From: Candidatus Sulfopaludibacter sp.
GTDB lineage: Bacteria > Verrucomicrobiota > Verrucomicrobiia > Limisphaerales > UBA11358
Length of the DNA stretch: 64,000 nt
Reading direction: 5' to 3'
NCBI GenBank assembly: GCA_035508155.1
Contig: DATJNM010000060.1
Span: 40,542 to 104,541, forward strand
In this document: positions 35,729 through 58,431 of the stretch, piece by piece
Position numbering within the stretch: the stretch's first letter is position 1
Layout: every line of letters starts with the position of its first letter
Notes under the pieces: generated by a model
The model's input: only the letters and a program-made list of their open reading frames with translations
What the model was told of the DNA's origin: nothing
Database searches by the model: none
Program-made: the position numbers and the translations under genes

Positions 35729-37990
35729 TTGATGAGTCTGCGTTTCCAATTTGTGTTTCACTTTTTCATCGTCGGGTTAGCGCTGACGCTGGGGTTGGGC
35801 CGCTGCGAAGCGGCGGTTGTCGCTTCGGCCAGCGGCTTGTCGCTGCGTCTGAACGCAAGCGATGGCAGCTATCAACTCTCTGCCCGACAGCCGGCGTGGG
35901 AACTGGGCGGCAGCATCAACCAGCCCTTTCAGGACGTCGCCACCGGTCAAGGGCGGGATGCCATTGGCCATTATCGGCAGTTGTCATTCGAATGGGAGGA
36001 CGGGCAGACGCCGATGAGGGGCCAAATCCGGATTTATGAGGAGAAGCCGCTGGCGTTGTTTTCGCAAACCTGCGGCGCGGCGACCGAACTGCCGCCGCGC
36101 GCGTTCCCGGATTTCCAGGTGTTGCCGGGCAAATTGCACGTTTTCAGCTACGGTCATCATGAATTTGCGCCGCCACGTTTCGCGGCGACCGAAATCTCCA
36201 CACCCTGGCTGTTCTTTGATGATTCCGCCAACGCTTTGGTCATTTCTCCGGCGTCGCATTTCATGGTGGCCAGCATGGTGGGCGATGGGCGGACGGAGGC
36301 AGGCAGCGGATTTAATCCGGCCTTGCGGAACCTGCCGGCGGGTTTCACTCAACAAACGCTGGTCGCGTTCGGCCAGGGCATCAATCGGACTTGGGATTTA
36401 TGGGGCGGCGCGCTGCTGGCTTTGCACCACGCTCAACGCCCCTCCGACGACGCCGACACGGTGCTGAAGTACCTTGGTTACTGGACCGACAACGGCGCGA
36501 CTTATTATTATAACTACGACACCAATCTTGGCTACGTCGGCACGCTCCAATCGCTGGTCGAGCGTTACCGCCAGGAGCAGATTCCCATTCACTATTTGCA
36601 ACTGGATTCGTGGTGGTATGAAAAGAGCACCACCGGTCCCGACGGCCAGCCGGGAAGGGAAAAGAAATCCGATAAGTTGCCCGGCGGCGAGTGGAACTGT
36701 TACGGCGGCCTGTTGAAATACAAGGCCGACACCAATCTGTTCCCGAACGGCCTGGACGCTTTTCAGGAATCCATCGGCCTGCCGCTGGTCACGCACAATC
36801 GCTGGATTGATCCGGCCAGCCCTTACCATCAACAATACAAAATTTCCGGCATTGCGGCCGTGGATCCGAAATGGTGGGACCATATCGCCGATTACCTGAA
36901 GGTTTCCGGCATCATTACCTACGAACAGGACTGGCTGGACCGCATTTACACCTATTCCCCGGCGTTCAGCAGCAATGTCGAAACGGGGGAGGCTTTTCTC
37001 AACAACATGGCGCGTGCCTGCCAGGAACAGGGCATCACCATGCAGTATTGCATGCCTTATCCGTGTTATTTTCTTCAAGGCAGCCGCTACGATAATCTGA
37101 CGACCATCCGCACCAGCGGCGACCGGTTCAATATGGACCACTGGGACAATTTTCTCTACACGTCGCGCCTGGCTGCCTCGCTGGGAATCTGGCCGTGGGC
37201 GGATGTTTATATGAGCGGCGAAACCAACAACGTCCTGCTCTCCACGCTTTCCGCCGGGCCGGTTGGCATCGGCGACGCCATCGGCGCGGTCAACAAGGCC
37301 AATCTTCTCCATGCCGTCCGCACCGACGGGGTGATTGTCAAACCTGATGCGCCCATCGTACCGCTGGACCAGAGCTACATCGCCGACGCGAAGAAAAAAC
37401 CGGCGCCCCTGACGGCGGGCACCTACACCGACCGCGGCGGCGTCAAAACCGGATATATCTTCGCCTACAACCGGCCCGACACACCGGCGGACACGGTTCG
37501 TTTCAGTCCAGGCGAGTTGGGCTTGCGCGGCCCGGTGTATGTTTATGATTATTTTTCCGGCACAGGCAAATTGCTCCATGACGGTGCTGACTTCACCGCG
37601 CCGCTGGGCGGGGACGCCAGCGTATTCTACATGGTCGCGCCCGTCGGCCAAAGCGGCATCGCCTTCCTCGGCGACAAGAATAAATTTGTCGGCACCGGCC
37701 GGCAGCGGATTGTGTCGCTGGACGATGAGCCCGGCAGGCTGACCATCGGAGTCGTATTGGCGCAGAACGAAAAATCGGTCGTCCTTCACGGCTATGCCGC
37801 CGCGGAACCGAAAGTGACGGTCATTTCCGGCTCGGACGACACGGTCCAATACGATCCCGCCAGCCACTACTTCACGGTCGAAGTAAAGCCCGACGGAGAT
37901 GCGACGGGTGCCGAAACCGCCGACGCTCGCACCCGGCAAATGACGGTGGTGCTGGAAACAAGAAAGTGGCGAGTGACGAGTGACAAGTGA
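35729..37990 (+). CDS. Secreted clan GH-D-like TIM-barrel glycosidase (family unassigned)
   Basis: 753 aa with N-terminal signal/anchor FQFVFHFFIVGLALTLGLG. The segments YLGYWTDNGATYYYNY, HYLQLDSWWY, ITYEQDWLD and TIRTSGDRFNMDHWDNF resemble the barrel strands (nucleophile Asp, R-x-S-G-D acid/base) of GH27/31/36 enzymes. Family is read by eye only. The stop lies inside GTGAC element A. Confidence 0.8.
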   Translation: MMSLRFQFVFHFFIVGLALTLGLGRCEAAVVASASGLSLRLNASDGSYQLSARQPAWELGGSINQPFQDVATGQGRDAIGHYRQLSFEWEDGQTPMRGQIRIYEEKPLALFSQTCGAATELPPRAFPDFQVLPGKLHVFSYGHHEFAPPRFAATEISTPWLFFDDSANALVISPASHFMVASMVGDGRTEAGSGFNPALRNLPAGFTQQTLVAFGQGINRTWDLWGGALLALHHAQRPSDDADTVLKYLGYWTDNGATYYYNYDTNLGYVGTLQSLVERYRQEQIPIHYLQLDSWWYEKSTTGPDGQPGREKKSDKLPGGEWNCYGGLLKYKADTNLFPNGLDAFQESIGLPLVTHNRWIDPASPYHQQYKISGIAAVDPKWWDHIADYLKVSGIITYEQDWLDRIYTYSPAFSSNVETGEAFLNNMARACQEQGITMQYCMPYPCYFLQGSRYDNLTTIRTSGDRFNMDHWDNFLYTSRLAASLGIWPWADVYMSGETNNVLLSTLSAGPVGIGDAIGAVNKANLLHAVRTDGVIVKPDAPIVPLDQSYIADAKKKPAPLTAGTYTDRGGVKTGYIFAYNRPDTPADTVRFSPGELGLRGPVYVYDYFSGTGKLLHDGADFTAPLGGDASVFYMVAPVGQSGIAFLGDKNKFVGTGRQRIVSLDDEPGRLTIGVVLAQNEKSVVLHGYAAAEPKVTVISGSDDTVQYDPASHYFTVEVKPDGDATGAETADARTRQMTVVLETRKWRVTSDK

Positions 37991-38047
37991 CGGGAAAACT
38001 CCGGCGCCGGCCACTGCTAGTCACTTGTCACGTGTTGCCCGTCAACT
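37964..38047 (+). repeat. GTGAC-heptad palindromic element, copy A
   Basis: AAGTGGC GAGTGAC GAGTGAC AAGTGAC, then a 28-nt loop (contains CCGGCGCCGG), then GTCACTT GTCACGT GTTGCCC GTCAACT. GTGACAAGTGAC (37980-37991) is perfectly complementary to GTCACTTGTCAC (38020-38031). Confidence 0.85.
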
Positions 38048-39998
38048 CGGCGCTGTGGCTTTGGTGTCGTTGTTTCTCATCCCATCGTTCGCCGCCACCG
38101 GCGAAAATCCTTTCTGGCAGCGCCAGAGCATTTACCAAATCATCACCGACCGTTTTTACGACGGCGATCCGTCAAACGACAATGCCGACGGCAATTACGA
38201 TCCGACGGGTCACCGCGGCACGTCCGTTCACGGCGGTGATTTCAAGGGCATCGAGGAAAAACTGGATTACCTCAAGTCGCTCGGCGCGACGGCCATCTGG
38301 ATTTCGCCGGTGGTGTTGAATGCCCGCGGCGAATTTCACGGTTACGCGGGGCTGGATTTTTACAAGGTGGACCCGCATTGGGGCACGATGGCGGACCTGC
38401 GACATCTGGTTCAGGCGGCGCACGCGCGCGGCATTCTGGTCATTGACGACATCGTGGTGAATCACGGCGGCAACCTCGTGGACAGCGCCGATCCGGGGTA
38501 TCCCGATTTCAAATATCCGCCCGCGGGATACCATTTGCGCTTCCGCGATCCCGCACGGCAATATCCGCCACCGTTTGATCTGAATGCCACCCACCCGTCG
38601 CTCACGAACCTGTTTCACGACAACGGCTTCATCCAGGACTATCACGACCCGGTCCAGGTTGAACTGGGCGAGTTGGGCGGGCTTGATGATTTTCGGACCG
38701 AAACGCCGTACGTTCGGGCACAGATGGAGAAGATTTACGAGTTTTGGATCCAGCAAGCGGGCTTCGACGCCTTCCGCATTGACACCGTCAAGCACGTCGA
38801 GGTCGGATTCTGGCGGGATTGGTGTCCGGCCATCCGCGCGTTCGCGGCGGCGCGCGGCAAGCCGGACTTTTTCATGTTCGGCGAAGTGCTGGATCATTCC
38901 GACGCCAAGTGTGGTTCCTACACCGGCATGATGGGGGGTGGGCCGTTCAAACTCGACTCAGTTCTGGATTACCCGCTGTATTTCAAAATCAAGTCCGTCT
39001 TCGCCGAGGCCACCGGCGGCACGAAACAAATCGTTGAGCACTACCGCGCCGTCAGCGCGAATTACGACCCGTCGGCGCAAAATCAATTGGTGACGTTCCT
39101 CGACAACCACGATCAGCCGCGTTTTTTGAGTGTCCCCGGGGCAACCGTCGCCCGGCTCAAGGTGGCGCTGATTTTTCTCTATACCGCGCAGGGCATTCCC
39201 TGCCTGTATTACGGCACGGAACAGGCCTTCAACGGCGGGAAGGACCCATTTGACCGGGAGGACATGTTCGCCGGACGATTCGAGTGGGGGCCGTCGCTGG
39301 GCGATAACTTCGACATGACGCATCCGTTGTTTCAACTCGTCGCCAGGCTTAACAATTTCCGGCGGCTCTATCCGGTGTTGCAAACCGGCATCCAATCCAA
39401 TCTGTGGGCCGGCGCCGGCGGCCCCGGCCTGTTCGCCTACATACGGCGGCTCGGTACACAACAAGTGTTCGTGGTTTTCAACACAGCGGAAACGAACCGG
39501 ATTCTGCCACCCTGCCCGACGATTTATCCGGCGGGAAAAAGGCTGCAAAATTTGCTCGATGAAAAGGAAAATTTAACCGTGCTCGCGGGCGGAAAGACTC
39601 CATCCCTCGCCGTGCCGGGCACATCGGCAAAAATCTTCGTCGCCAAATCCGAAATCCGTCCGCTTGATCCGGTGGTGACCGGCATATTGCCGAAACACGA
39701 CTCGCGGGAAATTTCGCCGACCGCGCCGATTATCGTTCGCTTCAGTCAGCCGATGGAAACCACGAGCGTGGAGCGTGCTTTTTCGACGGTGCCGGCGGTG
39801 CCGGGCGCGTTTTCCTGGACGGCCGCAGGCGACGAAATGACTTTCCAGCCGGCAAATCCCGGATTCCAACCGCAAACGATGATCACCGTGCGCATCGGCG
39901 ACGCGGCGCGTTCCGCCGATTCCGGCAGGACATTTTACGCCGGGTTTGAATCACGTTTCCGGTGCGGCGGGGCGGGCAGGGTCTCGCCGCCAAATTGA
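37980..39998 (+). CDS. GH13 alpha-amylase-family enzyme with C-terminal Ig-like domain
   Basis: GH13 regions I-IV are present: DDIVVNHGG, GFDAFRIDTVKHV, FMFGEVLD, FLDNHDQPRF. The C-terminal ~90 aa are Ig-like (SbsA/Big_5-like). The alternative start TTG 38025 (MSRVARQLGAVALVSLFLIPSFAA) gives a cleaner signal peptide than GTG 37980. Confidence 0.9.
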   Translation: MTSDGKTPAPATASHLSRVARQLGAVALVSLFLIPSFAATGENPFWQRQSIYQIITDRFYDGDPSNDNADGNYDPTGHRGTSVHGGDFKGIEEKLDYLKSLGATAIWISPVVLNARGEFHGYAGLDFYKVDPHWGTMADLRHLVQAAHARGILVIDDIVVNHGGNLVDSADPGYPDFKYPPAGYHLRFRDPARQYPPPFDLNATHPSLTNLFHDNGFIQDYHDPVQVELGELGGLDDFRTETPYVRAQMEKIYEFWIQQAGFDAFRIDTVKHVEVGFWRDWCPAIRAFAAARGKPDFFMFGEVLDHSDAKCGSYTGMMGGGPFKLDSVLDYPLYFKIKSVFAEATGGTKQIVEHYRAVSANYDPSAQNQLVTFLDNHDQPRFLSVPGATVARLKVALIFLYTAQGIPCLYYGTEQAFNGGKDPFDREDMFAGRFEWGPSLGDNFDMTHPLFQLVARLNNFRRLYPVLQTGIQSNLWAGAGGPGLFAYIRRLGTQQVFVVFNTAETNRILPPCPTIYPAGKRLQNLLDEKENLTVLAGGKTPSLAVPGTSAKIFVAKSEIRPLDPVVTGILPKHDSREISPTAPIIVRFSQPMETTSVERAFSTVPAVPGAFSWTAAGDEMTFQPANPGFQPQTMITVRIGDAARSADSGRTFYAGFESRFRCGGAGRVSPPN

Positions 39999-40009
39999 CA
40001 CGCGCAAAT

Positions 40010-40057
40010 CCCCAGTTTTTGGGGGCTAGGCAGGATTCCAAAGTCTGCGGATATTAA
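40010..40057 (+). promoter_or_regulatory. Conserved 24-nt element copy 3 + -10-like box
   Basis: CCCCAGTTTTTGGGGGCTAGGCAG (40010-40033), then 18 nt, then TATTAA (40052-40057). The next ATG is at 40100. Confidence 0.5.
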
Positions 40058-40099
40058 GCTCGCGCATATTCAATCCAGAACACCTTAACCGATTAAACT

Positions 40100-41974
40100 A
40101 TGAAGACCAAAACCGCCGTTCTTTCGTCCATGTTTTGTGCGGGGCTTTTGCTGGGCACCACCTGGCCGGTTTGCGCGGACACCCTGATCGCCTTTCAGTG
40201 CGACATGACGTATCAGGTTCAAAACTCACAATTCACCAATGGGGTCAATACGCTTAAAGTGTATACATATAACGCCACTCCGGCCGCCGTAACCAACTTG
40301 GTGTTGACCAACAATCCCGCATCATTGGTCAATACCAATCTCTATACGGGAACGTGGGACGATATGGTTGATACCAACGGCGCTCAAATCCAATATAAAT
40401 TTTATGCCGTCGGAAGTTCGATTCCCGGTGGCCCCTATGAAACGACGGCGACTTACAACGATAACCGGGTGACATTGCTTCCTGCGGGCAGCGGCCAGCA
40501 GAGTCTGGTCTTGCCCGTTCAGTTTTTCAGCGACCAGGGCATAAACCTAGCCTCCCCCCAATTTGTCGTAACCAGCAACATCTGGTTCCAAGTGGACATG
40601 TCACAGCAAATTGCCCTTGGGACTTTCAATCCCTCGACACAAACGGTGGAAGTTGACGGCAGCTTGGGCAGCGGCAATAATTTCGGTTTCGGCCAGGGGA
40701 CCACCCCCAGCGGCAACACCTTGACCAATGATCCCACCCTCCTGAGAACCAATCAGTTTGGTTTGGTGACTTCCAATGTATATACCGGATTTCTCTCCCA
40801 GCTCATTGCCGGCTCACCCGGGCAGAATGCCCAATTTAAATATCGAATCCAGCCATCTGCCATATACGAAAGCCCCAACAATCTAAACGGAGACGCGCAA
40901 AACAGCCATAACCGCTTCTTTTTCCTCACCGCGACCACCACAAACCCGATTGTCTTTTTCAGCGATCAGCCCTACGCGCCAATTGGAACAAACCGGATCA
41001 CCTTCTCGGTGGACATGAGCGCTCAAATCTGGAGCGGCCAGATGAGCAATCAACAAGTTCGCTTGAGCGGAGATTTTAACAATTGGGATACGAGCGGCAC
41101 GCTGGGCAATCTCTGCACAAATAATCCCAACGCCAGCAACACCAACATTTACTCTGCAACGGCAACTATCACCAATGGAGTCGGAGCTGCAACTCAATTC
41201 AAGTTCGGCTATGTCAATGGGAATTACGAAAACAATCCCACTCATACCTACCCGGGCGATCCATCCGTTGCCATCATCACCCCCAACCGGGAATTCATCA
41301 TGCCTGATGTCAGTGGCACCAATCTGACTTTGCCGACTGTTTATTTCAATGACACATCCACTTACTCCGTGCTGCCGGCTCCGCCCCCCACCAATTTCGT
41401 GACCTTCAGTGTCAGCATGACCAATGCGGTGGGCACGGATTCGCACGTGTTCAATCCCAACACCGACAGTGTTTATCTGAACGGTGTGGATGTGACCATG
41501 ACGTTGGGAACCTACCGCTTTGACCCATGGACCAACAATCCGACCGGCAACCCGCTGGGAAATTTCCTGATGATCAACAATCCGGTGGGCAGCGAGATTT
41601 ACACCATCACGGTCCCGATTCCGGCGGGATACCCGGTGATGCTTTCGTACCAATATTCCATCAACGGTAACCAGGATGAGGCCAATGGCATCAATCATAC
41701 CCGTTACATCCGGTCCACCGGAAACTACGTTCTGCCGCTGGATGTCTTCGGCAACATGGTTCAGGAACAGTCGTTCGGTAACCTGGCCGTCGGGGCAAAG
41801 TCAGGCGGCAACGTGCCGATCACCTGGCTGGGCCGTCCGGGCGTCCATTTGCAAGTCAAAACGAACCTGACCGTCGGTGCCTGGACCGATCTGCTCGGCA
41901 CCGATGCCCAAAGCGCAACGAACTATCCTGCAGGCGCGGGCGCCAGCTACTTCCGGTTAACCAATCCGTTTTGA
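40100..41974 (+). CDS. Secreted protein with four tandem CBM20/48-like beta-sandwich modules and conserved C-terminal tail (putative glucan-binding surface protein)
   Basis: Signal peptide MKTKTAVLSSMFCAGLLLGTTWPVCA. Four modules open with IAFQCDMTYQV / IWFQVDMSQQI / ITFSVDMSAQI / VTFSVSMTNAV. Module 3 has VRLSGDFNNWD...QFKF, typical of starch/glycogen-binding CBMs. Function is inferred. Confidence 0.8.
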   Translation: MKTKTAVLSSMFCAGLLLGTTWPVCADTLIAFQCDMTYQVQNSQFTNGVNTLKVYTYNATPAAVTNLVLTNNPASLVNTNLYTGTWDDMVDTNGAQIQYKFYAVGSSIPGGPYETTATYNDNRVTLLPAGSGQQSLVLPVQFFSDQGINLASPQFVVTSNIWFQVDMSQQIALGTFNPSTQTVEVDGSLGSGNNFGFGQGTTPSGNTLTNDPTLLRTNQFGLVTSNVYTGFLSQLIAGSPGQNAQFKYRIQPSAIYESPNNLNGDAQNSHNRFFFLTATTTNPIVFFSDQPYAPIGTNRITFSVDMSAQIWSGQMSNQQVRLSGDFNNWDTSGTLGNLCTNNPNASNTNIYSATATITNGVGAATQFKFGYVNGNYENNPTHTYPGDPSVAIITPNREFIMPDVSGTNLTLPTVYFNDTSTYSVLPAPPPTNFVTFSVSMTNAVGTDSHVFNPNTDSVYLNGVDVTMTLGTYRFDPWTNNPTGNPLGNFLMINNPVGSEIYTITVPIPAGYPVMLSYQYSINGNQDEANGINHTRYIRSTGNYVLPLDVFGNMVQEQSFGNLAVGAKSGGNVPITWLGRPGVHLQVKTNLTVGAWTDLLGTDAQSATNYPAGAGASYFRLTNPF

Positions 41975-42053
41975 TTTCAGCCGGGTACCACTGTCAAACC
42001 GACCGCCCAATGCCGGAGCGCGCGTTCCGGTTCCGGCGCGGAGCTTAATTGAC

Positions 42054-42952
42054 ATGGAATTGCCGACAAAAACAAAGTCCAAGACGGCAATGATGGTTTC
42101 ACCTTGATTGAGTTGTTGTTGGTGATTGCCATCATAGCGATTCTGGCCGCGATGTTGTTGCCGGCTTTGTCCGCGGCCAAGGTGCGGGCGCAGATCATTG
42201 CTGGCCTGAGCAATAAGAGGCAGTTGATGCTGGCCTGGTATATGTATCCCGGGGACCACAACGACCTGTTGGTGCTCAATACCAATCAGTCAGTCAACGT
42301 CAACGGCGTCGATCCGTGGATTCCACCGGGCAGCAAATTGGATTGGGGCAGTTCCTCGGCCAATACAAGCGTGACGCTCCTGGTAAGCTGTCAACTAGGC
42401 CCCTATTGTGGCGGTCAATTTAAAATTTTTACTTCGCCGGGGGATGTTTTCCTGTCTCCCATTCAGCAGGTGCTGAATATGGGCAAGCTTTTTAATCATC
42501 GGGCCAGGAGCGTCGCCATGGATGCGGCGATTGGCGGCGACGGATGGAATCATCCCGCCGACAATGGCAAGTCCGGGTATAAACCCCCCGCCTCTCTTGC
42601 TTCAAGCCTCAATCCCTTTTTCTTCGCGACCAAGTTAAGCCAAATGGTCAATCCCGGCCCGAGCAAGTGCTGGGTGTTTCTGAACGAGCACCCGGACAGC
42701 ATTGACGATGGGATTTTCTATGACGATCCTCGGGCAACAGATGGAACCGGCACGCTCATCGAAGTGCCGTCGAGCTATCTGGGCGGCGGCTGCGGCGTTT
42801 CTTTTGCCGACGGGCATGCGGAGGTTCATAAATGGACAACCAGCGCGTTCCTCGTTCCGGTTAAATATGCGAAGTATCCGGGAACCGGCGGGGTGCATTA
42901 CACCCAAAACGAGGACATGGCCTGGCTGGCACAGCACACACCCGCGCATTAG
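42054..42952 (+). CDS. Second prepilin-type N-terminal methylation domain protein (H-X9-DG-like, degenerate), with leader out of frame (frameshift or non-canonical start)
   Basis: The main frame reads ...[32 protein letters not shown]...[13 protein letters not shown]. The first canonical in-frame start is TTG 42104, downstream of the G/F cleavage site. A plausible leader ATG at 42054 ([17 protein letters not shown]) is in another frame and stops at 42105-42107. Confidence 0.7.
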
Positions 42953-49710: not shown

Positions 49711-52173
49711 ATGAAACTCAGGGAAGCACTTCGTCGTTTGTCCGATTGGAAAAATGGGCACGCGCGCCTTAAAGCAGACCCGGCCACGGATAGGGGCGGA
49801 GCAAAAGGTGCGCCCGCTTCCAATCCCGGGTCGAAATTCGACAGACTTTTCAGGCGCCTGATGGAAGCGGCAGCGCCGATGAAAATCCGCCGCATCGTTG
49901 GGCCGCTGGCAAACCGCGCGTATGAGCTGTTTGATTCCAATTTCCGCGCCAAAGTGTTGTTGCCGGTGGTGGGCTGTATGGCCGGAGCAATGGCCATTGC
50001 GTTTTTTGTCGTGGGCCACCGGATCGCGCGGCAATCAGAACAGGAGGCGCGCAGTACGCTGGCCACCGCCAACACGGTCATCCGCTCCTCGCAGGACTTC
50101 CGACGGAACAATTTGCTCCTGCGTTTTCACAACCTGCCGAATCAGTCGCTCTGGCGGCAGATCTTTCAATTCGGTCAGGCCAAGGATCTGCATAGCACGC
50201 TGAGCGACCTCATGGAAATGCAGAAGGTGGACATCCTGTTTTACGCCTCCAACCGGGGTAAAATCCTCGACGTGGAGAAAAATGATCCGGGGATTCCGAC
50301 CCCGGAATTTGAGGCCGCGGCGGCGCCGGTGTTGCAACTGGCCTTGCGCGGGGATGAAAAGGCGGACACGGTCTTTGTGGGCGGAAAGCTCTACGACGTG
50401 ATCACCATTCCCGCCTACAATCTGGATAACGAGCAGATTGGCGTGTTGACCCTCGGGCTGGAACTCGGCGGCGCCACGGCGCACGAGTTCAGCAAACTCA
50501 CGCAAAGTCAGATTGCCCTGATGGCCAATGGACGGGTCATCACCTCCACACTGCCCGGACTGGATACCAACGTGAGGTTTGCCAGTGCCTTCGAGGGCGC
50601 GATGCCCGTCAATGACAATGAAGACCCGACGGCGAATGTGAAGCCCATCGTGCTCAACGATGTGCATTATTATTGTATCGCCGGGCGGTTTGATTCGCTG
50701 AACGCTGGCAGTAATCTCGGTTATGTCTTGCTGAGCTCGCGTGAGCAGTCGCTGGCGGCGTTGCGGGCGACGCAACATGTGCTGGCGGGCATGGGGTTCC
50801 TCGCCATTTTGTTCTGCGCGGTGGCGGTGCGGTTTTACATCAACCGGGTCACCGAACCCTTGCGCGAGCTGCGCCAGGGCGCCGAGGCGGTCGGGCGCGG
50901 CGATTTCAACCGGCGCGTGGCGGTGCGCAGTCGCGATGAGTGCGGACAACTGGCGATGGTGTTCAACGGGATGACCGAAAACATCCAGCAATCACGGTCG
51001 CAATTGGAGAAGACCGTGGTGACGCTCAAGACTACTCAGGAACAGCTGGTCCAGAGCGAAAAGCTTTCGGCCATCGGCAAATTTGTTGCCGGCGTGGCGC
51101 ATGAATTGAACAATCCGCTGACGGCGGTGGTCGGTTTTTCGGAGATCCTGAAGCAGGCGACGGCGGATGGGAAAAGCCGCCAGTACTCGGAAACCATCCT
51201 CAAGGCCGCGTTGCGCTGCAAACGAATCGTTCAATCTCTGTTGAGTTTCGCGCGGCGGGAACAGCCCGAGCACAAGCTGATCTCCCTGAACAGCCTGATT
51301 GAGATGGTTCTCGAAATCGTTGGTTACTCGCTGCGCACCAGCAATATCGAGGTGGTCACCCAACTGGAACCCAAACTGCCGATGGTGCTGGTGGACACCG
51401 GCCAAATCCAGCAAGTGTTACTTAACATCGTCAATAATGCTCAGGAGGCCATTCTGGCCGGTGGGCAGGCGGGGCGAATCCAGATCGTGACCGAAATCCG
51501 GTTGCCGAACGTCCGCATCACCATTCAGGACAACGGGCCGGGCATTCCGCGGGAACATCTGCGGCGCATTTTCGATCCCTTCTTTACTACCAAGGAGGTT
51601 GGCAAAGGCACCGGCCTGGGCTTGAGTTTGTGCTACGGCTACATCAAGGAAAACGGCGGCACGATCACAGCCTCCAGCCAGGTGGGCAAGGGGGCGACCT
51701 TCAACATCGAGTTGCCCGTTGCCGAGAAGGCGGAAGCCACCATAGAACTGGCGTCCTTGCCGGACATACCGCCGGCGGAAAAACCGGATCTGCACGAGGG
51801 CGACGGCAAACGCGTGCTGGTCATTGATGACGAGAAACCCATTCTGAACCTGATCCACGACGACTTTGAGCTTCGGGGCTACCAGGTGGAAGTGGCTGAG
51901 AACGGTAAAACGGCCCTGAGTAAACTCGAACAAAATCATTTCGACCTGGCATTTTGCGACTGGAAAATGCCCGGCTTGAACGGCCAGGAAGTTTACGAGC
52001 AACTGCGCCGCACCCATCCCCAATTCTGTCAGCGCATCATTTTCATCACCGGTGATGTCATCAACGACGAGATGCGACAGTTCCTGGAAACGGAAAAACG
52101 TCCCTGTCTCACCAAGCCCTTCACCCTGTCGGAACTTCATACCACGGCCGAAACCGTCCTGAAGGCGGGATGA
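49711..52173 (+). CDS. Hybrid sensor histidine kinase (periplasmic sensor, HAMP, HisKA, HATPase, C-terminal receiver)
   Basis: HAMP-like [22 protein letters not shown]-box [20 protein letters not shown]. ATPase DNGPGIP...[25 protein letters not shown]...[14 protein letters not shown]. The start is uncertain (ATG 49711 chosen; the track start is 49426). Confidence 0.88.
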
Positions 52174-52345
52174 CGAAAGTTTTCCCAGGCTTGCCTGCCG
52201 ATTTCCTCGAGGCCGGGATGCCTGAAGCGATTCAATTCATCCCGCAACCGCCCCGCCTTGAGGGATTGGTTCGCGCCCTATCATGGCCGGTTATCCGATT
52301 GGCCCCGACTCACGCCGGGGGCTGCGCACTTTTGGGGGAAGCGGT

Positions 52346-52723
52346 CTAGCGAATCGAGAGGGCAATGGAAATTTGACTGATGGCCGCCTGCACATGTTTG
52401 AGCGCCTTGCCGGACAGCCCGGCGCTGGCTTGTTCGAGAAGTCCCTGGGCGGCGCGAAGCTGGGCATCGGAAGTTCCCTGGGGTTCATGGTTCCTGCCCG
52501 TGCTGCTGATTTTTGCACCCATCTCACCGAGGGCGGCTTCGATTTGTTTCATCGCTCTGACCCGATGTCCCTTGTAATCGTGCTTGGCCTGGGCGAGCGT
52601 CGCGTAGGCATCGTTCAGCAGTATAGTGGAATTCGGTTGAGCCTGGGCACGGGTCACCAGGCCAAAGGCCAGGAGAATGATGGCGAGCAGAGTCGAGCCG
52701 CGGAGGAAGGATGGGTTATTCAT
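52346..52723 (-). CDS. Small secreted hypothetical protein
   Basis: 125 aa with signal peptide MNNPSFLRGSTLLAIILLAFGLVTRAQA followed by a helical, Ala/Gln-rich body (AKHDYKGHRVRAMKQIEAAL). I do not recognise the family. Confidence 0.6.
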   Translation of the reverse strand: MNNPSFLRGSTLLAIILLAFGLVTRAQAQPNSTILLNDAYATLAQAKHDYKGHRVRAMKQIEAALGEMGAKISSTGRNHEPQGTSDAQLRAAQGLLEQASAGLSGKALKHVQAAISQISIALSIR

Positions 52724-52824
52724 GCCATAAAGAAAGTTTGCCGCCCGTGGATTGTCAAGCCGGTAATGATTGGGCTAAGCTGGATGTCGGCATTGGCAAT
52801 TGACCGGAACAAAATTGGGTTCCC

Positions 52825-53814
52825 ATGTCCTGCTTTTATGAACAACTCGCCGCCGCTCTGGCGGAGAACCAGCCGTTTGCGCTGGCGCTGATTTCCGGCG
52901 TCAAAGGTTCCAGCCCGCAACGCATCGGGGCCAAGGCGCTGTTCTTCTCCGACGGCCGCATCGTGGGCACCCTCGGTGGCGGCTGTCTGGAGGCCGAAGT
53001 TCACGCCCGCGCCAAACGCGCCTTGAAAACCGGCGCGGCTTCGACCTTTGAAATGCTGCTGGATCATGATTTCGGCTGGGACGACGGCCTGATTTGCGGC
53101 GGCAGTGTGTCGGGATTGATTTTGCCGCGTGCGGCGGAAGCGGCGGACCTCTGGCGCCAACTCGCCGCCGTAACCGAACCGGTTCGCTGGGGTGTCAAAA
53201 GGGATTTTTCCATCTCACTTTGCCCGAAAACAAGTGACGAGTATCGTGTGACGGGTGACGCAGCCCCCTTTTCCCGCGACACGCGACACGTGCCACCCGC
53301 CACCGCCTCCGACTGGCTTTACCAGGAGATCGTTTCGCCGTCGCCCGCGTTCTGGATTGCCGGTTCCGGCCACGTGGCCCAGGCGGTCGCGCCCCTGGCC
53401 CGGCAATTGGAGTTCGACGTGACGGTCTTTGACGACCGACCCGGACTGGCGAATCGCCGTTTTTTCCCCGAAGCCGTACGCCTGCGCGTGGGCGGCTGGC
53501 ATGAGCTGTTGAAGGAACCTATGCCCAAACAGCCGGCCTTTGGCTTGATTGTCACCCGCGGGCACCAGCATGACGCGCTGGTGCTGACCGAGTGGATTCA
53601 GCGCCCGTTTGTTTTTCTGGGCATGATCGGCAGCCGCCGCAAGGCGCGGATCATTCGCGAACAATTCCTGAAACAAAACATCGCCACCGCGGAGCAATTG
53701 GATCGAATTGCCTGTCCCGTTGGTTTGGACATTGACGCGCGGAGCACGCCGGAAATTGCTGTGAGCGTTCTGGCGCAGTATATCGAGAAACGGGCCGCGT
53801 TGCGTGACGCGTGA
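52825..53814 (+). CDS. xdhC: XdhC/CoxI-family molybdoenzyme maturation (Moco insertion) chaperone
   Basis: N-domain FALALISGVKGSSPQRIGAKALF...GTLGGGCLEAEV and Rossmann C-domain FWIAGSGHVAQAVAPLARQLEFDVTVFDDRP...LIVTRGHQHD. The stop lies within GTGAC element B. Confidence 0.88.
   Translation: MSCFYEQLAAALAENQPFALALISGVKGSSPQRIGAKALFFSDGRIVGTLGGGCLEAEVHARAKRALKTGAASTFEMLLDHDFGWDDGLICGGSVSGLILPRAAEAADLWRQLAAVTEPVRWGVKRDFSISLCPKTSDEYRVTGDAAPFSRDTRHVPPATASDWLYQEIVSPSPAFWIAGSGHVAQAVAPLARQLEFDVTVFDDRPGLANRRFFPEAVRLRVGGWHELLKEPMPKQPAFGLIVTRGHQHDALVLTEWIQRPFVFLGMIGSRRKARIIREQFLKQNIATAEQLDRIACPVGLDIDARSTPEIAVSVLAQYIEKRAALRDA
53232..53303 (+). repeat. GTGAC-heptad palindromic element, copy D (in frame inside xdhC linker)
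   Basis: AAGTGAC GAGTATC GTGTGAC GGGTGAC, then a 16-nt loop, then GCGACAC GCGACAC GTGCCAC CCGCCAC. It is translated as KTSDEYRVTGDAAPFSRDTRHVPPATA, between the two XdhC domains. Confidence 0.7.
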
Positions 53815-53860
53815 CGGGTGGCCGGTAACGCGAAATCCCGTCACCCGTCACATGTCACCG
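53802..53860 (+). repeat. GTGAC-heptad palindromic element, copy B
   Basis: GCGTGAC GCGTGAC GGGTGGC CGGTAAC, then a 10-nt loop, then GTCACCC GTCACAT GTCACCG. It contains the xdhC stop (TGA 53812-53814) and the mocA-like ATG (53852-53854). Confidence 0.85.
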
Positions 53861-54484
53861 ACAAAAAATCGCCCGGCGCTCGGCGTCATCATCCTGGGAG
53901 CCGGCGCATCGTCGCGCATGGGCCGGCCCAAACTGCTGCTGCCGTGGGGCAAAACATCCATCGTCGGCCATCTCATCGAACAATGGCGGAGACTCGGGGC
54001 GGCACAAATCGTCATCGTTTGCCGCCCGGACGACCAGGAGCTGGCCGCCGAACTGGATCGCCTGAATTTGCCGCTTCGGGATCGGATTAAGACTCCGTAC
54101 CCCGAACACGGCATGTTCAGTTCAATTCTTTGCGCCGCTCGCTGGTCCGGCTGGCGAAAGGCAATTTCCAGCTGGGCGGTGGTTCTGGGGGACCAACCTC
54201 ATTTGCAGGCGGAAACCTTACGGGTATTGCTGGAACAAGTCGCACAAAATCCGGGCGCGATCTGCCAGCCGGCGTTCCGTGGTCAGGCGCGGCATCCGGT
54301 GATTTTGCCACGCGACGTGTTTGTTGAACTACAGCGGTCCGGCGCGGAAACGTTGAAGGATTTTTTGAAACCATTAGCCGGCCGGAGCGTCCAATGTCCG
54401 GTGGCGGATGCCGGACTGTTGCTTGACTTGGACCGGTGGGAGGACTATGAGAAGGCAGTTAAGTCCCATACAGGAGATTTATGA
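53852..54484 (+). CDS. mocA: MobA/MocA-like nucleotidyltransferase (molybdenum cofactor cytidylyl/guanylyl-transferase)
   Basis: LGVIILGAGASSRMGRPKLLLPW is the MobA-like NTP-transferase motif. Start taken at ATG 53852 (the track GTG 53804 overlaps xdhC). Confidence 0.82.
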   Translation: MSPTKNRPALGVIILGAGASSRMGRPKLLLPWGKTSIVGHLIEQWRRLGAAQIVIVCRPDDQELAAELDRLNLPLRDRIKTPYPEHGMFSSILCAARWSGWRKAISSWAVVLGDQPHLQAETLRVLLEQVAQNPGAICQPAFRGQARHPVILPRDVFVELQRSGAETLKDFLKPLAGRSVQCPVADAGLLLDLDRWEDYEKAVKSHTGDL

Positions 54485-55128
54485 ATGATCCGGACGCAGC
54501 CGGCGGAGGCTCCTTTTCCCGCCGGACATTTCTGAAAGGACTGGGCACCTCGGCGGTGGCGGCGGTGGCCGCGCAAACCACCGCGGTGGCGGCGGAGCTT
54601 GAAAAGGTCAACGCCGAAAAGATCCTCGGTCCCGGGGAGGTGCTGGTGACACTCGAGGTTAATGGCCGGAAACTGAAGCTTCAGCTGGAGCCGCGGGTGA
54701 CTTTGCTCGATGCGTTGAGGAATTACTCCAGTCTGACCGGCGCCAAAGAGGGCTGTGACCGCGCGGCGTGCGGCGCCTGCACGGTGTTGTGGGATGGGAC
54801 GCCGATTTATTCCTGCCAGAAACTCGCCATCGAGGCCCAAGGACACGAAATTACAACCGTGGAAGGCCTGGCCAAGGACGGCAAATTGTCGAAGGTGCAA
54901 CAGGCGTTTATAGCCAAAGACGCGTTGCAATGCGGTTATTGCACGCCGGGTTTTATCATGAGCGTGACGGCATTGCTGAAACAAAATCCCCATCCGACCG
55001 CCGACGAGGTAAAACACGCCTGTGCCGGGAACCTGTGCCGCTGCGGCACCCATCCGCACATTTTGCAGGCTGTGTTCCAGGCGGCGGGCGTAAAGGTCAC
55101 CAGCAAAACGGAGGTCATCCATGCCTAG
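54481..55128 (+). CDS. TAT-exported [2Fe-2S] small subunit of xanthine dehydrogenase-family molybdoenzyme (PaoA/YagT-like)
   Basis: Twin-arginine signal SRRTFLKGLGTSAVAAVAA. Ferredoxin-type cluster CDRAACGACTV and second cluster QCGYCTPGF...NLCRCGTH. 4-nt overlap with the upstream gene. Confidence 0.9.
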   Translation: MNDPDAAGGGSFSRRTFLKGLGTSAVAAVAAQTTAVAAELEKVNAEKILGPGEVLVTLEVNGRKLKLQLEPRVTLLDALRNYSSLTGAKEGCDRAACGACTVLWDGTPIYSCQKLAIEAQGHEITTVEGLAKDGKLSKVQQAFIAKDALQCGYCTPGFIMSVTALLKQNPHPTADEVKHACAGNLCRCGTHPHILQAVFQAAGVKVTSKTEVIHA

Positions 55129-57214
55129 CTGGCCGACCGAAACCAAATACATCAGCCACCCCACGTTGCGCGTGGATGCCGTGCCGAAGGTGACCGGTCG
55201 CGCGCGCTATTCATCCGACATCCAGGCGGACGGCTGGCTTTATGGCATGATTCTCCGGTCAAAATGGCCGGCGGCAAAAATTTTATCGGTGAACCTGGAC
55301 AAGGCGCGGCAAGTTCCCGGCATCAAGGCCGCGGTGGTCGCGCGCGACGGCGAGTTTACGGTGCGTTATTACGGCGAGGAAATCGCCGCGGTCGCCGGCA
55401 CCACCAGGCAGGCCTGCCTTGACGCGTTGCGCGCCATTGAAGTCAAAGCCGAGCCGCGCAATGAATTTGCCGTCAACGAAAACGAAGCGCGGAAGGATGA
55501 CGCACCCCAGGTCTGGGAGGGCAGGTCCAATGTGGCGGCGGGCCCGCCGCGCGAACATGGCAACGTGGATCAGGCCTTCGGCGAGTGCGCCGCCGTCATC
55601 GAAGGTTTTTACACGACGCCGGTGCAAATTCACAATCCGATGGAGACGCATGGCAATACGGTCTCCTGGACGGACGACGGAGTGACGGCTTGGGCTTCCA
55701 CCCAGGGCATTTCCAGCGTGCGCGACGGTCTGGCGGGCGCGCTGCAACTGGACCAAAGCAAGATACGGGTCATCACCGACTTCATGGGTGGCGGCTTTGG
55801 TTCGAAATTTGGCGCGGGCGTGGAAGGTATGCTGGCCGCGCAATTGTCGCGCGAGGCGAAAGCGCCGGTTCGGCTCATGCTCACGCGGTTTGATCAGGCG
55901 CTCGCCGTCGGCAACCGGCCTTCCAGTTTTCAAAAAATCAAAATGGGCGCGAAGGCGGACGGAACCCTGCACGCCTTTGAGGCGGAAAATTACGGAACGG
56001 CCGGCATCGGCGCGGGTGCGGACTCCGGCGGTGGCGGTGGAGGTGCGGACCTTACCATGCCCTATCTTTACCGGGTTCCCAACAGCCGCGTGAAACAATC
56101 GCATGTGGCGGTCAACGCCGGTTCCGCCCGCGCCTTTCGCGCGCCGGGAAATCCGCCCGCGTCCTTTGGCATGGAATCCGCCATGGACGACCTCGCGGTG
56201 AAGCTGGGCATGGACCCGCTGGCATTCCGGCTCAAGAATGATTCCAACGAAATCCGCCAGCGTGAATACGCCATCGGCGCGGAAAAAATCGGCTGGAAGG
56301 AAAAATACCAAAAGCCCGGCAGCTCGCCCGGCGTGGTGAAAACCGGCATCGGTTGCGCCGGCGCCGCGTGGCCCGCCGGCGGCCCCAGCCGCTCAACTCA
56401 GGGCGAGGCGCAAATCAATCCCGACGGCAGCGTTGAATTCCGCCTCGGCGTGCAGGACATCGGCACCGGCACCAAAACGGTCATCGCCGTGGTGGCGGCG
56501 GAAATGCTTGGATTGAAGCCGGAACAAATCACCGTGAAAGTCGGCGACACGAATTTCCCGCCCGGCCCCGGCAGCGGCGGCAGCACCACCTGTGCTTCGG
56601 TTTCGCCGACGGTTTATGACATCTGCCAGCGCGGTCTGCAGCAGTTGCTGAAGCAAACCGGCGTCGCCGACGCGCGCGGGAAGAACTGGTTTGCCGCCTG
56701 CAAAAAACTTGGGGTCAACCCGCTGGTCGTCCACGGAAATTGGATTGAAGGGCTCTCCAATCGCCCGGCCTACGGCGTGCAGTTTGCCGAGGTGGCCGTG
56801 GACACGGAAACCGGTCTGGTTGCAGTCAAGAAAATCGTCGCGGTTCACGACTGCGGCCTTATTATTGACACGCTGACGCTCGAAAGCCAGATCAACGGCG
56901 GTGTTATCATGGGCATGGGCTACGCGCTTTACGAGGAGCGCGTGATGGACGATCTGTCCGGCGTGGTGCTGAATCCGAATTTTGAAACGTACAAACTACC
57001 CGGCATCGCCGACGTGCCGGAAATTGAAATCGTCCTGTTGAACATGCCGGAGCGCGGCGTCATCGGCATCGGCGAACCGGCCACCGTGCCCACGGCAGCG
57101 GCGATCGGCAATGCCGTCGCCAACGCCATCGGCGTGCGCGTCGGCAGCCTGCCCATTACGCCGGCAAAAGTCCTGGCGGCGCTTGGTAAAGTTCCTCACG
57201 TTGCCACTACATGA
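55121..57214 (+). CDS. Molybdopterin-binding large subunit of xanthine dehydrogenase-family oxidoreductase (PaoC/YagR-like)
   Basis: 697 aa with typical segments (RVDAVPKVTGRARYSSD, HNPMETHG, GGGFGSK, AFRAPG, GEPATVPTAAAIGNAV). 8-nt overlap with the upstream gene. Confidence 0.9.
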   Translation: MPSWPTETKYISHPTLRVDAVPKVTGRARYSSDIQADGWLYGMILRSKWPAAKILSVNLDKARQVPGIKAAVVARDGEFTVRYYGEEIAAVAGTTRQACLDALRAIEVKAEPRNEFAVNENEARKDDAPQVWEGRSNVAAGPPREHGNVDQAFGECAAVIEGFYTTPVQIHNPMETHGNTVSWTDDGVTAWASTQGISSVRDGLAGALQLDQSKIRVITDFMGGGFGSKFGAGVEGMLAAQLSREAKAPVRLMLTRFDQALAVGNRPSSFQKIKMGAKADGTLHAFEAENYGTAGIGAGADSGGGGGGADLTMPYLYRVPNSRVKQSHVAVNAGSARAFRAPGNPPASFGMESAMDDLAVKLGMDPLAFRLKNDSNEIRQREYAIGAEKIGWKEKYQKPGSSPGVVKTGIGCAGAAWPAGGPSRSTQGEAQINPDGSVEFRLGVQDIGTGTKTVIAVVAAEMLGLKPEQITVKVGDTNFPPGPGSGGSTTCASVSPTVYDICQRGLQQLLKQTGVADARGKNWFAACKKLGVNPLVVHGNWIEGLSNRPAYGVQFAEVAVDTETGLVAVKKIVAVHDCGLIIDTLTLESQINGGVIMGMGYALYEERVMDDLSGVVLNPNFETYKLPGIADVPEIEIVLLNMPERGVIGIGEPATVPTAAAIGNAVANAIGVRVGSLPITPAKVLAALGKVPHVATT

Positions 57215-58176
57215 AAGCTTTTGAATATACCACCGCGCTTTCCACTGACAGCGCCCGCGAACTGGTTGCCGACAAGGGCGTTTATCTCGCCGGCGGCAAT
57301 GATTTGCTTGGCCTGCTCAAGGATTATCTCATTCCCGGTCCGAACATCCTCGTCAACGTCAAGTCGTTGCCCGGTTTGAACCGGATCGAGCGGGGCGCAA
57401 ATAGCTGGACCCTCGGCGCGCTGGTTACCATTGCGCAACTTGAAGGTGACACGGACCTATCGAAAGTTTTTCCCGGTTTGCACGATGCCGCGTCGGAAAT
57501 TGCCTCGCCGCAGATCCGCAACGTCGCCACCGTGGGCGGCAATCTTGCCCAACATTCGCGCTGTTGGTATTACCGCCAGCGCGACGTGCCGTGTCTGAAA
57601 AAGGGCGGTGACCTTTGTTACGCGCGGGAAGGCGACAGTCGCTATCACAGTCTGTTCAGCGGCAACGATTGCATCAGCCCGGTGGTTTCCAGCCTGGGCA
57701 CCACCTTCGCTGCGCTCGACGCCACCGCCGTCGTGCTGCGCGACGGCAAGGAAACACGCCTGAGCATGGCCGAGCTTTACCAGAAGGCGTGGACGGAGCC
57801 GACGGCGCACCATTCACTCAATCCCGGCGATTTGATTCTGCGCGTGGAAATTCCGACCGCGCGTACCGCCAGCGCTTATCTGCAGGTCAGCGACAAGCAC
57901 ACGTTCGACTGGGCCCTGGTGAGTTGCGCCGCGGCGGCGGATGTCAGCGGCGGAAAATTAAATCAGTCGCGCGTGGCGCTGGGCAGCATCTCGCCGGTGC
58001 CGCATCAGGTCGAGGCGGCCAACGCTTTCCTGGATGGCAAGGCCTTGGACGATGACATCGCGTCGCAGGCCGCAGACCTGATTTTAAAAGAGGCCCGGCC
58101 GCTGGAGCATAATGCTTACAAGGTGCCAATGGCGCACGCGCTCATCCGGCGCACGCTGCTGAAACTGAAAAGTTGA
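57211..58176 (+). CDS. FAD-binding subunit (CO dehydrogenase flavoprotein-like; PaoB/YagS-like)
   Basis: YLAGGNDLLGLLK, ASPQIRNVATVGGNLAQ and a C-terminal CO-DH flavoprotein domain. 4-nt overlap with the upstream gene. Confidence 0.88.
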   Translation: MKAFEYTTALSTDSARELVADKGVYLAGGNDLLGLLKDYLIPGPNILVNVKSLPGLNRIERGANSWTLGALVTIAQLEGDTDLSKVFPGLHDAASEIASPQIRNVATVGGNLAQHSRCWYYRQRDVPCLKKGGDLCYAREGDSRYHSLFSGNDCISPVVSSLGTTFAALDATAVVLRDGKETRLSMAELYQKAWTEPTAHHSLNPGDLILRVEIPTARTASAYLQVSDKHTFDWALVSCAAAADVSGGKLNQSRVALGSISPVPHQVEAANAFLDGKALDDDIASQAADLILKEARPLEHNAYKVPMAHALIRRTLLKLKS

Positions 58177-58180
58177 CGCC

Positions 58181-58384
58181 ATGAACCCGATATTTTGCAA
58201 GCATCTGCGGACAAAAAGCCTGTATGTCGGCGCGACACCGGAGGAAGCCTTTGCGGAAAAGGAAGGCGAGCACGTCACGCCCTGCCATTTCTGGTGCAAC
58301 CGCACGCAGACCGTCGTGGGCGTGGACGACCAGCCGGTCCACAAGGACGCGTGCCGGTCACCGCGTTCGTGCTTCGAGGAATGA
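58181..58384 (+). CDS. Small Cys-rich protein of unknown function, last gene of the molybdoenzyme operon
   Basis: 67 aa: MNPIFCKHLRTKSLYVGATPEEAFAEKEGEHVTPCHFWCNRTQTVVGVDDQPVHKDACRSPRSCFEE, with 5 Cys. It starts 4 nt after the FAD-subunit stop and is followed directly by GTGAC element C. Confidence 0.55.
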   Translation: MNPIFCKHLRTKSLYVGATPEEAFAEKEGEHVTPCHFWCNRTQTVVGVDDQPVHKDACRSPRSCFEE

Positions 58385-58388
58385 CTTC

Positions 58389-58431
58389 GCGTGACGAGTG
58401 ACGGGTGACGGGTGGCGCGATTGAGTCATCG
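58389..58431 (+). repeat. GTGAC-heptad element, copy C (right arm degenerate)
   Basis: GCGTGAC GAGTGAC GGGTGAC GGGTGGC, then gcgattga, then GTCATCG. It begins 5 nt after the stop at 58384. Confidence 0.75.

Follow-up and report, generated by a model that had tools for sequence, protein, structure and literature searches.

What are the short GTGAC repeats that mark gene junctions in a 64-kb stretch of metagenomic DNA, and what keeps them there? The stretch, hereafter the window (the whole 64 kb that was analysed), lies within the ENA metagenome contig ERZ27256562 k141_2549992 (115.6 kb, 57% G+C). It carries four arrays of NNGTGAC heptads, which start at positions 37964 (copy A), 53232 (copy D), 53802 (copy B) and 58389 (copy C), each with four left heptads. 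A sequence-only reading of the window had taken them for copies of one dispersed family, in which direct GTGAC heptads, a loop and inverted GTCAC heptads form a palindrome at gene junctions. Here we compare these copies with other stretches of DNA (loci with L numbers) and describe a family with a definite design, present in many phyla and both kept and lost at orthologous sites. Its origin as a copied repeat and its action as a hairpin between genes are proposed tentatively.

The heptad arrays and the family they belong to

The positions of the four arrays were confirmed by pattern matching, shuffling and tandem repeat detection. The pattern (GTGACNN)x4 with up to three mismatches gave 6 overlapping matches, all at the four copies, and none in 100 dinucleotide shuffles, while a three-heptad pattern matched 10 times in the window against 0.07 expected. 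Tandem Repeats Finder reported period-7 repeats at 37965-37992, 53275-53290, 53802-53820, 53837-53859 and 58391-58414. No phased GTGAC or GTCAC pairs were found elsewhere in the 64-kb window. The RNA fold prediction that the sequence-only reading had suggested placed copies A and B at about -35 to -41 kcal/mol (a minimum free energy, MFE, of -41 kcal/mol for A and about -35 to -40 kcal/mol for B), better than their shuffles (z -4.3 and -6.0), whereas copies C and D gave no fold signal (z -0.1 and +0.4).

The common architecture proposed for the four copies holds in part. A and B are full hairpins at gene junctions, but copy C is a half element, and copy D has decayed and lies in frame inside the open reading frame (ORF) of an XdhC-family protein, not at a junction. 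All four copies were also said to share one orientation, which carries little information for A and B because the GTGAC...GTCAC palindrome is identical on both strands; what counts is the order of the arms, GTGAC followed by GTCAC.

A scan for the element was run with the pattern GTGACNNGTGAC-N(4-34)-GTCACNNGTCAC over 185,579 species genomes and matched at least 120 loci, compared with roughly 17 matches that our own arithmetic predicts by chance in the whole collection. The listed matches extend well past the searched pattern. These very many copies in other genomes, together with the absence of shuffle matches, support a dispersed family rather than a chance resemblance. More than 10 phyla are represented among the matches listed: Pyrinomonadaceae and other Acidobacteriota make up the majority, and the others come from Verrucomicrobiota, Planctomycetota, Bacteroidota, Chloroflexota, Nitrospirota, Gemmatimonadota, beta-, gamma- and deltaproteobacteria and a few further groups, including cultured Marinobacterium strains. 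The NN spacer of the heptad varies by lineage, being RR in Acidobacteriota and Verrucomicrobiota, TR in Bacteroidota and GC or CC in Planctomycetota.

Among the listed loci, arms most often have four heptads (78 of 151 left and 78 of 151 right arms), and five heptads occur in only 7 left and 6 right arms. The spacer between the arms mostly measures 15–25 nt, with neither helical nor 7-bp phasing, and the total length of the element is 60–80 nt. The palindrome continues into the spacer (1.8 consecutive pairs vs. 0.35 in shuffles). The outer ends of the element read (C)AGTGAC...GTCACT(G), and Pyrinomonadaceae copies are preceded by A-rich and followed by T-rich flanks (AAAAGCA-GTGAC...GTCAC-TGCTTTT). 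Loops are also shared between copies: a GAAA..TCCC theme is common to the window and Verrucomicrobia copies, and the loop AAGTTAAGG.. recurs in copies at unrelated loci of one genome (L013, L030, L045). In one case, a hairpin of GTGATGA-type heptads is nested in the loop of a GTGAC hairpin (L053 7357-7520).

The arms come in one order. The fetched loci contain 133 GTGAC-then-GTCAC hairpins and none in the swapped order, a biased count because these loci were picked for the forward pattern; in viral contigs, the swapped-order comparison gave 22 extended GTGAC arrays vs. 6 simple 2+2 palindromes. A metagenome scan with a 24-base Verrucomicrobia-type left array, which is unbiased as to the partner, found this array in more than 100 contigs. 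The inverted partner lay downstream in 42 of the 106 non-redundant metagenome arrays and upstream in none, and downstream of many partnerless arrays came arrays built from other heptads. The swapped order GTCAC...GTGAC is thus essentially never used.

Control scans and by-catch revealed further heptad hairpins, among them CAGTGGT/ACCACTG, CAGTGAA/TTCACTG, GAGTCNA/..GACTC, AGAGTTG and AAATCGT. The CAGTG and GAGTC cores had to be dropped as a null for GTGAC specificity, being themselves real heptad-hairpin families, and the heptad-hairpin design is therefore general. At the gathering score, Rfam gave no hits in the window and only tRNAs in 17 loci; a permissive Rfam scan over copies B and D returned only chance hits (E ≥ 0.09), on copy B. 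Searches of the open-access literature with heptad strings such as GTGACGAGTGAC and CAGTGGTCAGTGG yielded only primers, and BLAST of the consensus element against PLSDB plasmids and INPHARED phages produced no match, to which the low-complexity filter may contribute.

Some individual loci deserve mention. A Chloroflexi locus (L015 1789-2066) carries about 20 heptads per arm over 278 nt. In a Porphyromonadaceae locus (L052 1200-7400), nearly every intergenic region is full of arrays of different heptads (GACGAGT, CATTAAC, TTAATGA, CTCCCCA, TGACAGT, TCGCTAT). On the IMG/VR contigs (L150-L176), hairpins of the GTGAC type and heptad hairpins built on other cores occur about equally often, and a contig often carries several of the latter. 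Near-identical GTGACTR-type elements, an odd GTCTAC/GTCCAC heptad included, occur on contigs labelled Dialister sp. UBA734 (L004, L008, L044) and on others labelled Paludibacteraceae (L007, L062, L108), a likeness that suggests mis-binning or recent transfer.

Gene contexts were assigned to 129 elements of the listed loci with a crude ORF caller: 58 lie between co-directional genes, 25 between convergent and 10 between divergent ones, while 9 are intragenic and 27 are at locus edges. The stop of the preceding gene typically falls at -3, -10 or -17, where heptads 1, 2 and 3 have their TGA, or no more than 15 nt from the array, and the next start lies 5–33 nt beyond the element. Solo arrays showed no clear bias with respect to gene orientation (24 vs. 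15; 18 vs. 16). In a Pyrinomonadaceae locus (L002 1-2700), a GTGAC hairpin (1967-2043) lies between tRNA genes, in one of the spacers of an array with about 20 of them.

Upstream genes have their ends in the left arm because GTGAC contains TGA and 7 mod 3 = 1. Three successive GTGAC heptads present TGA in all three frames, and the complement of the right arm does likewise on the other strand; by this sequence arithmetic, an incoming ORF is always closed within 21 nt on either strand read into the element. In a whole subfamily the second heptad is GTGGC, so that a single frame stays open. In themselves, stops within the arrays are not evidence for a coupling device, because a 7-nt unit with TGA yields them arithmetically.

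Copies at orthologous sites

Copy A consists of the left array AAGTGGC GAGTGAC GAGTGAC AAGTGAC (37964-37991) and the right array GTCACTT GTCACGT GTTGCCC GTCAACT (38020-38047), with the expected perfect 12-bp stem between 37980-37991 and 38020-38031. As the sequence-only reading had described, the element contains the stop codon of the upstream ORF (TGA of heptad 4, 37988-37990) and both candidate starts of the alpha-amylase gene. One is a GTG at 37980 in the left arm and the other a TTG at 38025 in the right arm, whose 657-aa product is the NCBI protein P0121. Copy A and a homologous loop are kept at both syntenic amylase loci (L300 and L301), where the amylases are 86% and 80% identical. In both of them, heptad 1 supplies the TGA that ends the upstream ORF. 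The window copy has GTGGC as its first heptad (TGG in frame), so the ORF closes at heptad 4 and is 21 nt longer than its orthologs; heptad 4 is a backup stop seen in action.

Copy B is built from the left array GCGTGAC GCGTGAC GGGTGGC CGGTAAC, the loop GCGAAATCC and the right array C GTCACCC GTCACAT GTCACCG. It had been said to hold the stop of one gene and the start of the next, and it does: the XdhC stop is the TGA of heptad 2 (53812-53814), and the MobA-like gene has its called ATG (53852) inside the final heptad of the right arm. In seven orthologous xdh operons, the XdhC-MobA junction is occupied by a GTGAC hairpin in four, by a TTTTGAN/NTCAAAA hairpin in two and by an AATGACN type in one. 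All four GTGAC-type operons have the XdhC stop at a left-array TGA and the MobA ATG in the last right heptad, while the two TTTTGAN/NTCAAAA hairpins are unrelated to the GTGAC type and carry the ATG in their loops. In copy B, the loop is the reverse complement of GGATTTCG, the loop of the orthologous copies in L122, L178 and L179, which is the outcome expected from recombination between inverted arms.

Non-GTGAC heptad hairpins were also seen at operon junctions of the relatives (L123 10930-10990, L124 8925-8995, L177 6940-7120, L122 14380-14477), including a TTCAACA/TGTTGAA hairpin between the molybdopterin and FAD subunit genes of L122. In L178 (8235-11300, from a 4.64-Mb genome), the xdh molybdopterin and FAD subunit genes were called as several short fragments, which may be frameshifts, pseudogenes or assembly errors.

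Copy D lies in the XdhC linker between the two Pfam domains XdhC_CoxI and XdhC_C. Its left heptads read GTGAC GTATC GTGAC GTGAC, and its right arm has mutated to GACAC GACAC GCCAC GCCAC; in L122, the linker segment that holds its ortholog folds at -49 kcal/mol. The linker contains a GTGAC element in the window, L122 and L124 and is empty in L123 and L178. The heptad that would bring TGA into frame has changed in every ortholog (to TAT in the window, to TGT in L122 and to TGG in L124), and the XdhC protein alignment has C, W, Y, R, S or G at that residue.

Across 120 XdhC homologs, the linker site, which directly precedes the WLYQE motif, is either empty or occupied by one of at least five unrelated in-frame inserts. 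In L179, the insert is a 60-nt GC-rich palindrome, GGGAGCGCCGGC...GCCGGCGCTCCC, translated as ..GSAGFQPA..AGKMPALP.. within a linker segment that folds at -51.7 kcal/mol. In L177, it is an octamer array, AACGCTTC, translated as ..TLQRFNAST.., and a further insert type reads EGRAGSPLPAA..DGAHGVTRPT. The XdhC proteins P0030 and P0074 have a 21-nt (three-heptad) deletion. On the XdhC neighbour-joining tree, the insert types are interspersed, with a resolution too weak to count independent insertions.

Copy C has the left array GCGTGAC GAGTGAC GGGTGAC GGGTGGC and begins 5 nt past the stop of a 67-aa ORF (58181-58384). L123 carries a half element at the same site too, with four perfect GTGAC heptads and spacers that differ at most positions, while the flanks of the two copies are almost identical by eye.

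The comparison of orthologous junctions, which the sequence-only reading had proposed as a test of mobility, thus gave a divided answer: long conservation was seen, and so were presence/absence and replacement. Presence at syntenic sites amounts to 3 of 3 orthologs for A, 4 of 7 for B and 2 of 2 loci for C. Identity over all orthologous copies is 90% in the GTGAC cores and 58% in the NN spacers; for the noncoding copies only, 158 of 175 core positions agree vs. 30 of 52 spacer positions (Fisher p about 5e-7, calculated on pairs that are not independent). The unit number stays at 3–4 between orthologs, and the orthologs of A and B fold at -19 to -41 kcal/mol. Conserved cores with drifting spacers point to a trans-acting reader of GTGAC at 7-nt spacing.

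Table 1. Heptad elements and associated genes, with positions in the window unless a locus is named
Feature	Position	Strand	Remarks
Copy A, full heptad hairpin	37964..38047	.	left array, 28-nt spacer, right array
Copy B, full hairpin filling the XdhC-MobA junction	53802..53860	.	heptad pattern, period 7
Copy C, half element	58389..58431	+	left array; right arm decayed
Copy D, decayed in-frame 72-nt element	53232..53303	+	translated ..SDEYRVTGDAAPFSRDTRHVPPATASD..
753-aa ORF upstream of copy A	35729..37990	+	no Pfam hit
Alpha-amylase gene	38025..39998	+	Pfam PF00128, PF13205
XdhC-family accessory gene	52825..53814	+	contains copy D in frame, ends in copy B
MobA-like nucleotidyltransferase gene	53852..54484	+	gene call, Pfam PF12804
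XdhC linker hotspot	window 53200-53320; L179 6001-6990; L177 6001-6945		

Two features of the window stand apart from the arrays. At 15556-15653, Tandem Repeats Finder (score 126) reported 2.3 copies of a 42-nt tandem repeat with 80% matches, which has no relation to the heptads. The NCBI label of the window proteins is 'Candidatus Sulfopaludibacter sp.' (Acidobacteriota), while the closest homologs of the XdhC and amylase proteins (80–86% identity) belong to Limisphaerales and other Verrucomicrobiota; going by these homologs, the Sulfopaludibacter bin label is probably wrong.

Possible origin and action of the element

We favour, tentatively and with somewhat more doubt than confidence, the interpretation of the element as a heptad palindrome similar to a REPIN (a hairpin-forming doublet of repetitive extragenic palindromic, REP, sequences) or a MITE (miniature inverted-repeat transposable element), retained as a hairpin between genes and supplying stops in all frames. 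Its unit would be four RRGTGAC heptads, a spacer of about 10–28 nt and four GTCACYY heptads, copied to new permissive sites by a putative sequence-recognising factor. The convergent pair is probably the active form, with single arrays such as copy C as remnants, and copies would persist only at low-harm sites, namely gene ends, operon junctions, tRNA spacers and protein linkers. A copied repeat of the REPIN/MITE kind is suggested because the family combines a fixed size, shared loops, presence/absence at orthologous sites, a nested copy, the loop inversion and a shared linker hotspot. In the transcripts of copies A and B, a stem of 20–29 pairs would bury the downstream start codon, and a ribosome ending at the TGA of the 5' arm would open the stem, so that downstream translation would be tied to the upstream gene. 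The geometry of the two copies, with the stop in the 5' arm and the start in the 3' arm, makes such translational coupling plausible.

Several observations weigh against this interpretation. About 60% of the arrays in the unbiased metagenome sample have no partner, so the basic unit may be the four-heptad array and not the hairpin. No transposase, REP-associated tyrosine transposase (RAYT) or recurrent neighbour gene was found among about 350 loci, in which no search was aimed at RAYT. Clustering of 742 ORFs downstream of the arrays gave no family present in more than five loci, and those few were orthologous sites; the genes between two elements are housekeeping genes (serC, thiolase, pheS, fabZ, cinA and others), not transposases, and no parent insertion sequence was seen among them. 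The single comparison of a filled with an empty XdhC linker revealed no clear target duplication, and the empty site already has AGTGACGA. Copies A and B are kept at the same junctions in species whose flanking proteins are 73–86% identical, and such long conservation fits a functional cis-element better than a selfish insert. The cores are better conserved than the spacers, which a passive hairpin does not predict. The crudeness of the ORF caller is a further point of caution, as is the lack of a T-tract in the window copies, none of which was called by a terminator scan.

Further results bear on the strand on which the element might act. Only 67% of spacer positions pair; G:T mismatches are as frequent as A:C ones (40 vs. 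44 overall, 9 vs. 8 relative to the sense strand), and either the sense or the antisense strand may have the better MFE. These results also count against a passive hairpin between genes. With equal mismatches and mixed MFE values, there is no sign of selection on the mRNA strand, contrary to the earlier suggestion of a hairpin acting in the mRNA, and strand-specific hairpin selection was dropped as an explanation. Taken with the conservation of A and B and the contrast between cores and spacers, the 67% pairing, equal mismatches and mixed MFE point to a putative reader of GTGAC.

A reader is central to the main rival explanation, which we consider unlikely but serious: the heptads would be double-stranded docking sites for a protein that binds every 7 bp and needs about four contiguous units. 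The candidate reader would be a ribbon-helix-helix (RHH) protein such as omega/ParB of pSM19035, and the pair of arrays would serve as an operator, a centromere-like site or a nucleoid site. Five conserved and two free positions per heptad, with 90% vs. 58% identity in orthologs, are in line with docking, as are four units as the commonest number, the fixed relative orientation of the two arrays, the many solo arrays, the different heptad arrays side by side and mismatches without strand asymmetry. However, the sites lie at gene 3' ends, within operons, between tRNA genes and inside an ORF rather than at promoters. The palindrome reaches into the spacer, a feature that independent protein arrays would not require, the spacer length follows neither the helix nor a 7-bp period, and no RHH or other small gene recurs beside the arrays.

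The omega protein provides the precedent for docking: each WATCACW heptad is bound by one dimer, and function requires a run of at least four contiguous units (PMC9499535). Its arrays resemble the GTGAC family in the 7-bp unit, the TCAC core, the mixture of direct and inverted arrangements and the number four. They differ in being contiguous and gapless, at three promoters of a Firmicutes plasmid with an adjacent RHH gene, and not a hairpin family scattered over chromosomes, whereas the GTGAC arrays are split by a 10–28 nt spacer and lie at gene ends. Omega/ParB, the only reader of 7-bp arrays that we found, is a lead for the docking explanation and not a match.

A second rival dispenses with both a reader and mobility. 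The arrays would arise in place by replication slippage with a 7-nt preference, template switching would then make the two arms symmetric, and the repeats would be nearly neutral. Among long simple repeats, heptamers are the most over-represented in many bacteria, and for them a link to the polymerase has been proposed (PMC4679880, PMC4692102). Many unrelated heptad flavours occur as hairpins, the XdhC proteins P0030 and P0074 show a three-heptad deletion, and the empty XdhC site already contains one AGTGACGA unit. We nevertheless regard slippage as improbable: the unit number peaks sharply at four and is stable between orthologs despite diverging spacers, non-orthologous copies have loops and flanks in common, the same 24-base array is found in more than 100 metagenome contigs, and slippage would homogenise the spacers along with the cores.

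Still less probable, in our view, is a main function as bidirectional intrinsic terminators or mRNA 3'-end stabilisers. Enrichment at gene 3' ends (convergent 25 vs. divergent 10), the A-rich and T-rich flanks in Pyrinomonadaceae and the very stable stems are what such a function would produce. An intrinsic terminator has a short GC-rich stem followed by a T-tract, a description that the window copies do not match: TTTT occurs within 14 nt in only 18% of the family (listed loci), copies A and B were missed by the terminator scan, and the stems are far longer than usual. Moreover, A and B lie in apparent operons with the next start in an arm, where termination would be counter-productive, and the conservation of GTGAC would be left unexplained. 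Chance similarity or ordinary low-complexity sequence, for which nothing speaks beyond the short length of each unit, is practically refuted by the zero shuffle matches and by hundreds of further copies with the same extended design.

A wider and rather doubtful possibility is that four-heptad arrays, solitary or convergently paired and of many flavours (GTGAC, CAGTGGT, GAGTCNA, GGGAATC, GGGACCG, TCAAAA and others), form one cross-phylum class of cis-elements, each flavour being read at 7-nt spacing by a cognate putative protein. If so, the reader could be a DNA-binding protein that forms a lattice and requires four contiguous units, or else a new kind of domesticated transposase, and GTGAC would be the most widespread member of the class.

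Comparison with known repeats

Over-representation of heptamers in bacteria has reportedly been noted since 1990 (short tandemly repeated repetitive, STRR, sequences) and in 2007 (Mrazek), without explanation. Several candidates were dropped for misfits of taxon, sequence or location: the MatP site matS (GTGACRNYGTCAC), integron attC, the HutP and TRAP RNA sites, the Tsp45I site GTSAC and SECIS. Rickettsia palindromic elements (RPE) are palindromic inserts that are translated in frame within genes, as copy D is within XdhC; unlike the GTGAC element, they measure 100–150 bp, are not built from heptads and are known only from Rickettsia.

MITEs have terminal inverted repeats plus a target-site duplication; the GTGAC element has inverted arms, and the one linker site compared in filled and empty form gave no clear duplication. 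REPs and REPINs, mobilised by RAYT (a Y1 transposase whose single-copy gene the repeats flank), are short extragenic palindromes present in hundreds of copies, and they persist over long periods with one to few families per genome (PMC3116915, PMC3337134). In REPINs, the inverted hairpin doublet is the proposed mobile unit and singlets are its remnants, to which the 40% paired and 60% single GTGAC arrays would correspond. The likeness is purely formal, since the GTGAC arms are built as heptad arrays and not as REPs; while REP arms are imperfect palindromes with a GTAG or CGTC tag, the outer ends of the GTGAC element have neither tag.

Other comparable repeats are tandem heptamers. The TAACTGA repeats of Beggiatoaceae, cyanobacteria and Bacteroidetes and the cyanobacterial STRR are intergenic tandem heptamers of 2–6 copies that lie near start codons (PMC4679880). 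They share with GTGAC the forward-frame stops, which limit ORF overlap, and the scattered phylogeny, but they have another unit, occur solely as direct repeats (a single inverted case in 170) and have no predicted hairpin (PMC4679880). Geobacter metallireducens carries GGGACCG x4 in 49 copies and MTYCTGA x5, both intergenic and intragenic (PMC2700814). Four or five tandem heptads, tens of copies and the drawing of some as paired arms recall the GTGAC family, whereas the units are different and were catalogued only as putative regulatory sites, without analysis of orientation or conservation (PMC2700814).

The closest counterparts are the heptamers GGGAATC/(GGGANTN)n of Xanthomonas and GGGGAYT of Nostoc, described by Rehm et al. 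in 2015 (PMC4692102). A Xanthomonas genome contains about 185 arrays of the GGGAATC type, most of them with four units of conserved and variable positions, and 70–75 convergent pairs able to form stem-loops (PMC4692102). They lie 28 nt on average from the end of the upstream ORF, with 16% between convergent genes, 7–8% between divergent genes and 7–11% intragenic; a comparison of two species showed 83% in unchanged gene context, and the arrays are transcribed (PMC4692102). The GTGAC family resembles them in a core with free positions, four units, convergent pairs, location at gene ends, fewer divergent contexts and kept gene context. Transcription, reported for the Xanthomonas heptamers, aside, it agrees with that type in every feature compared except the G-quadruplex.

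The differences lie in the unit, in the TGA present in all frames and in the occurrence in many phyla as opposed to one genus. The four units of Xanthomonas were explained by G-quadruplex formation (PMC4692102), which is part of that published view and not of the array design. RRGTGAC has no GGG run and cannot form a quadruplex, so four units in convergent pairs need another explanation. If the wider class exists, the quadruplex would not be the general one.

The family, which the sequence-only reading did not recognise, has precedents in the four-unit heptamer arrays described in Xanthomonas (PMC4692102) and Geobacter (PMC2700814). What it adds is that four units, convergent pairs, 3'-end location and conservation between species occur in more than 10 phyla without the ability to form a quadruplex. 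The contrast between core and spacer is a signature of sequence-specific constraint and poses a concrete question, namely what reads GTGAC every 7 nt; cultured carriers (Marinobacterium, for example M. nitratireducens) exist. Gene calling and operon reading in assemblies of Verrucomicrobiota and Acidobacteriota are affected, because the elements supply stops and sometimes starts and insert in frame, as in the XdhC linker. Overall, these comparisons position the GTGAC family as a new and unusually widespread member of a known, unexplained class of heptamer repeats.

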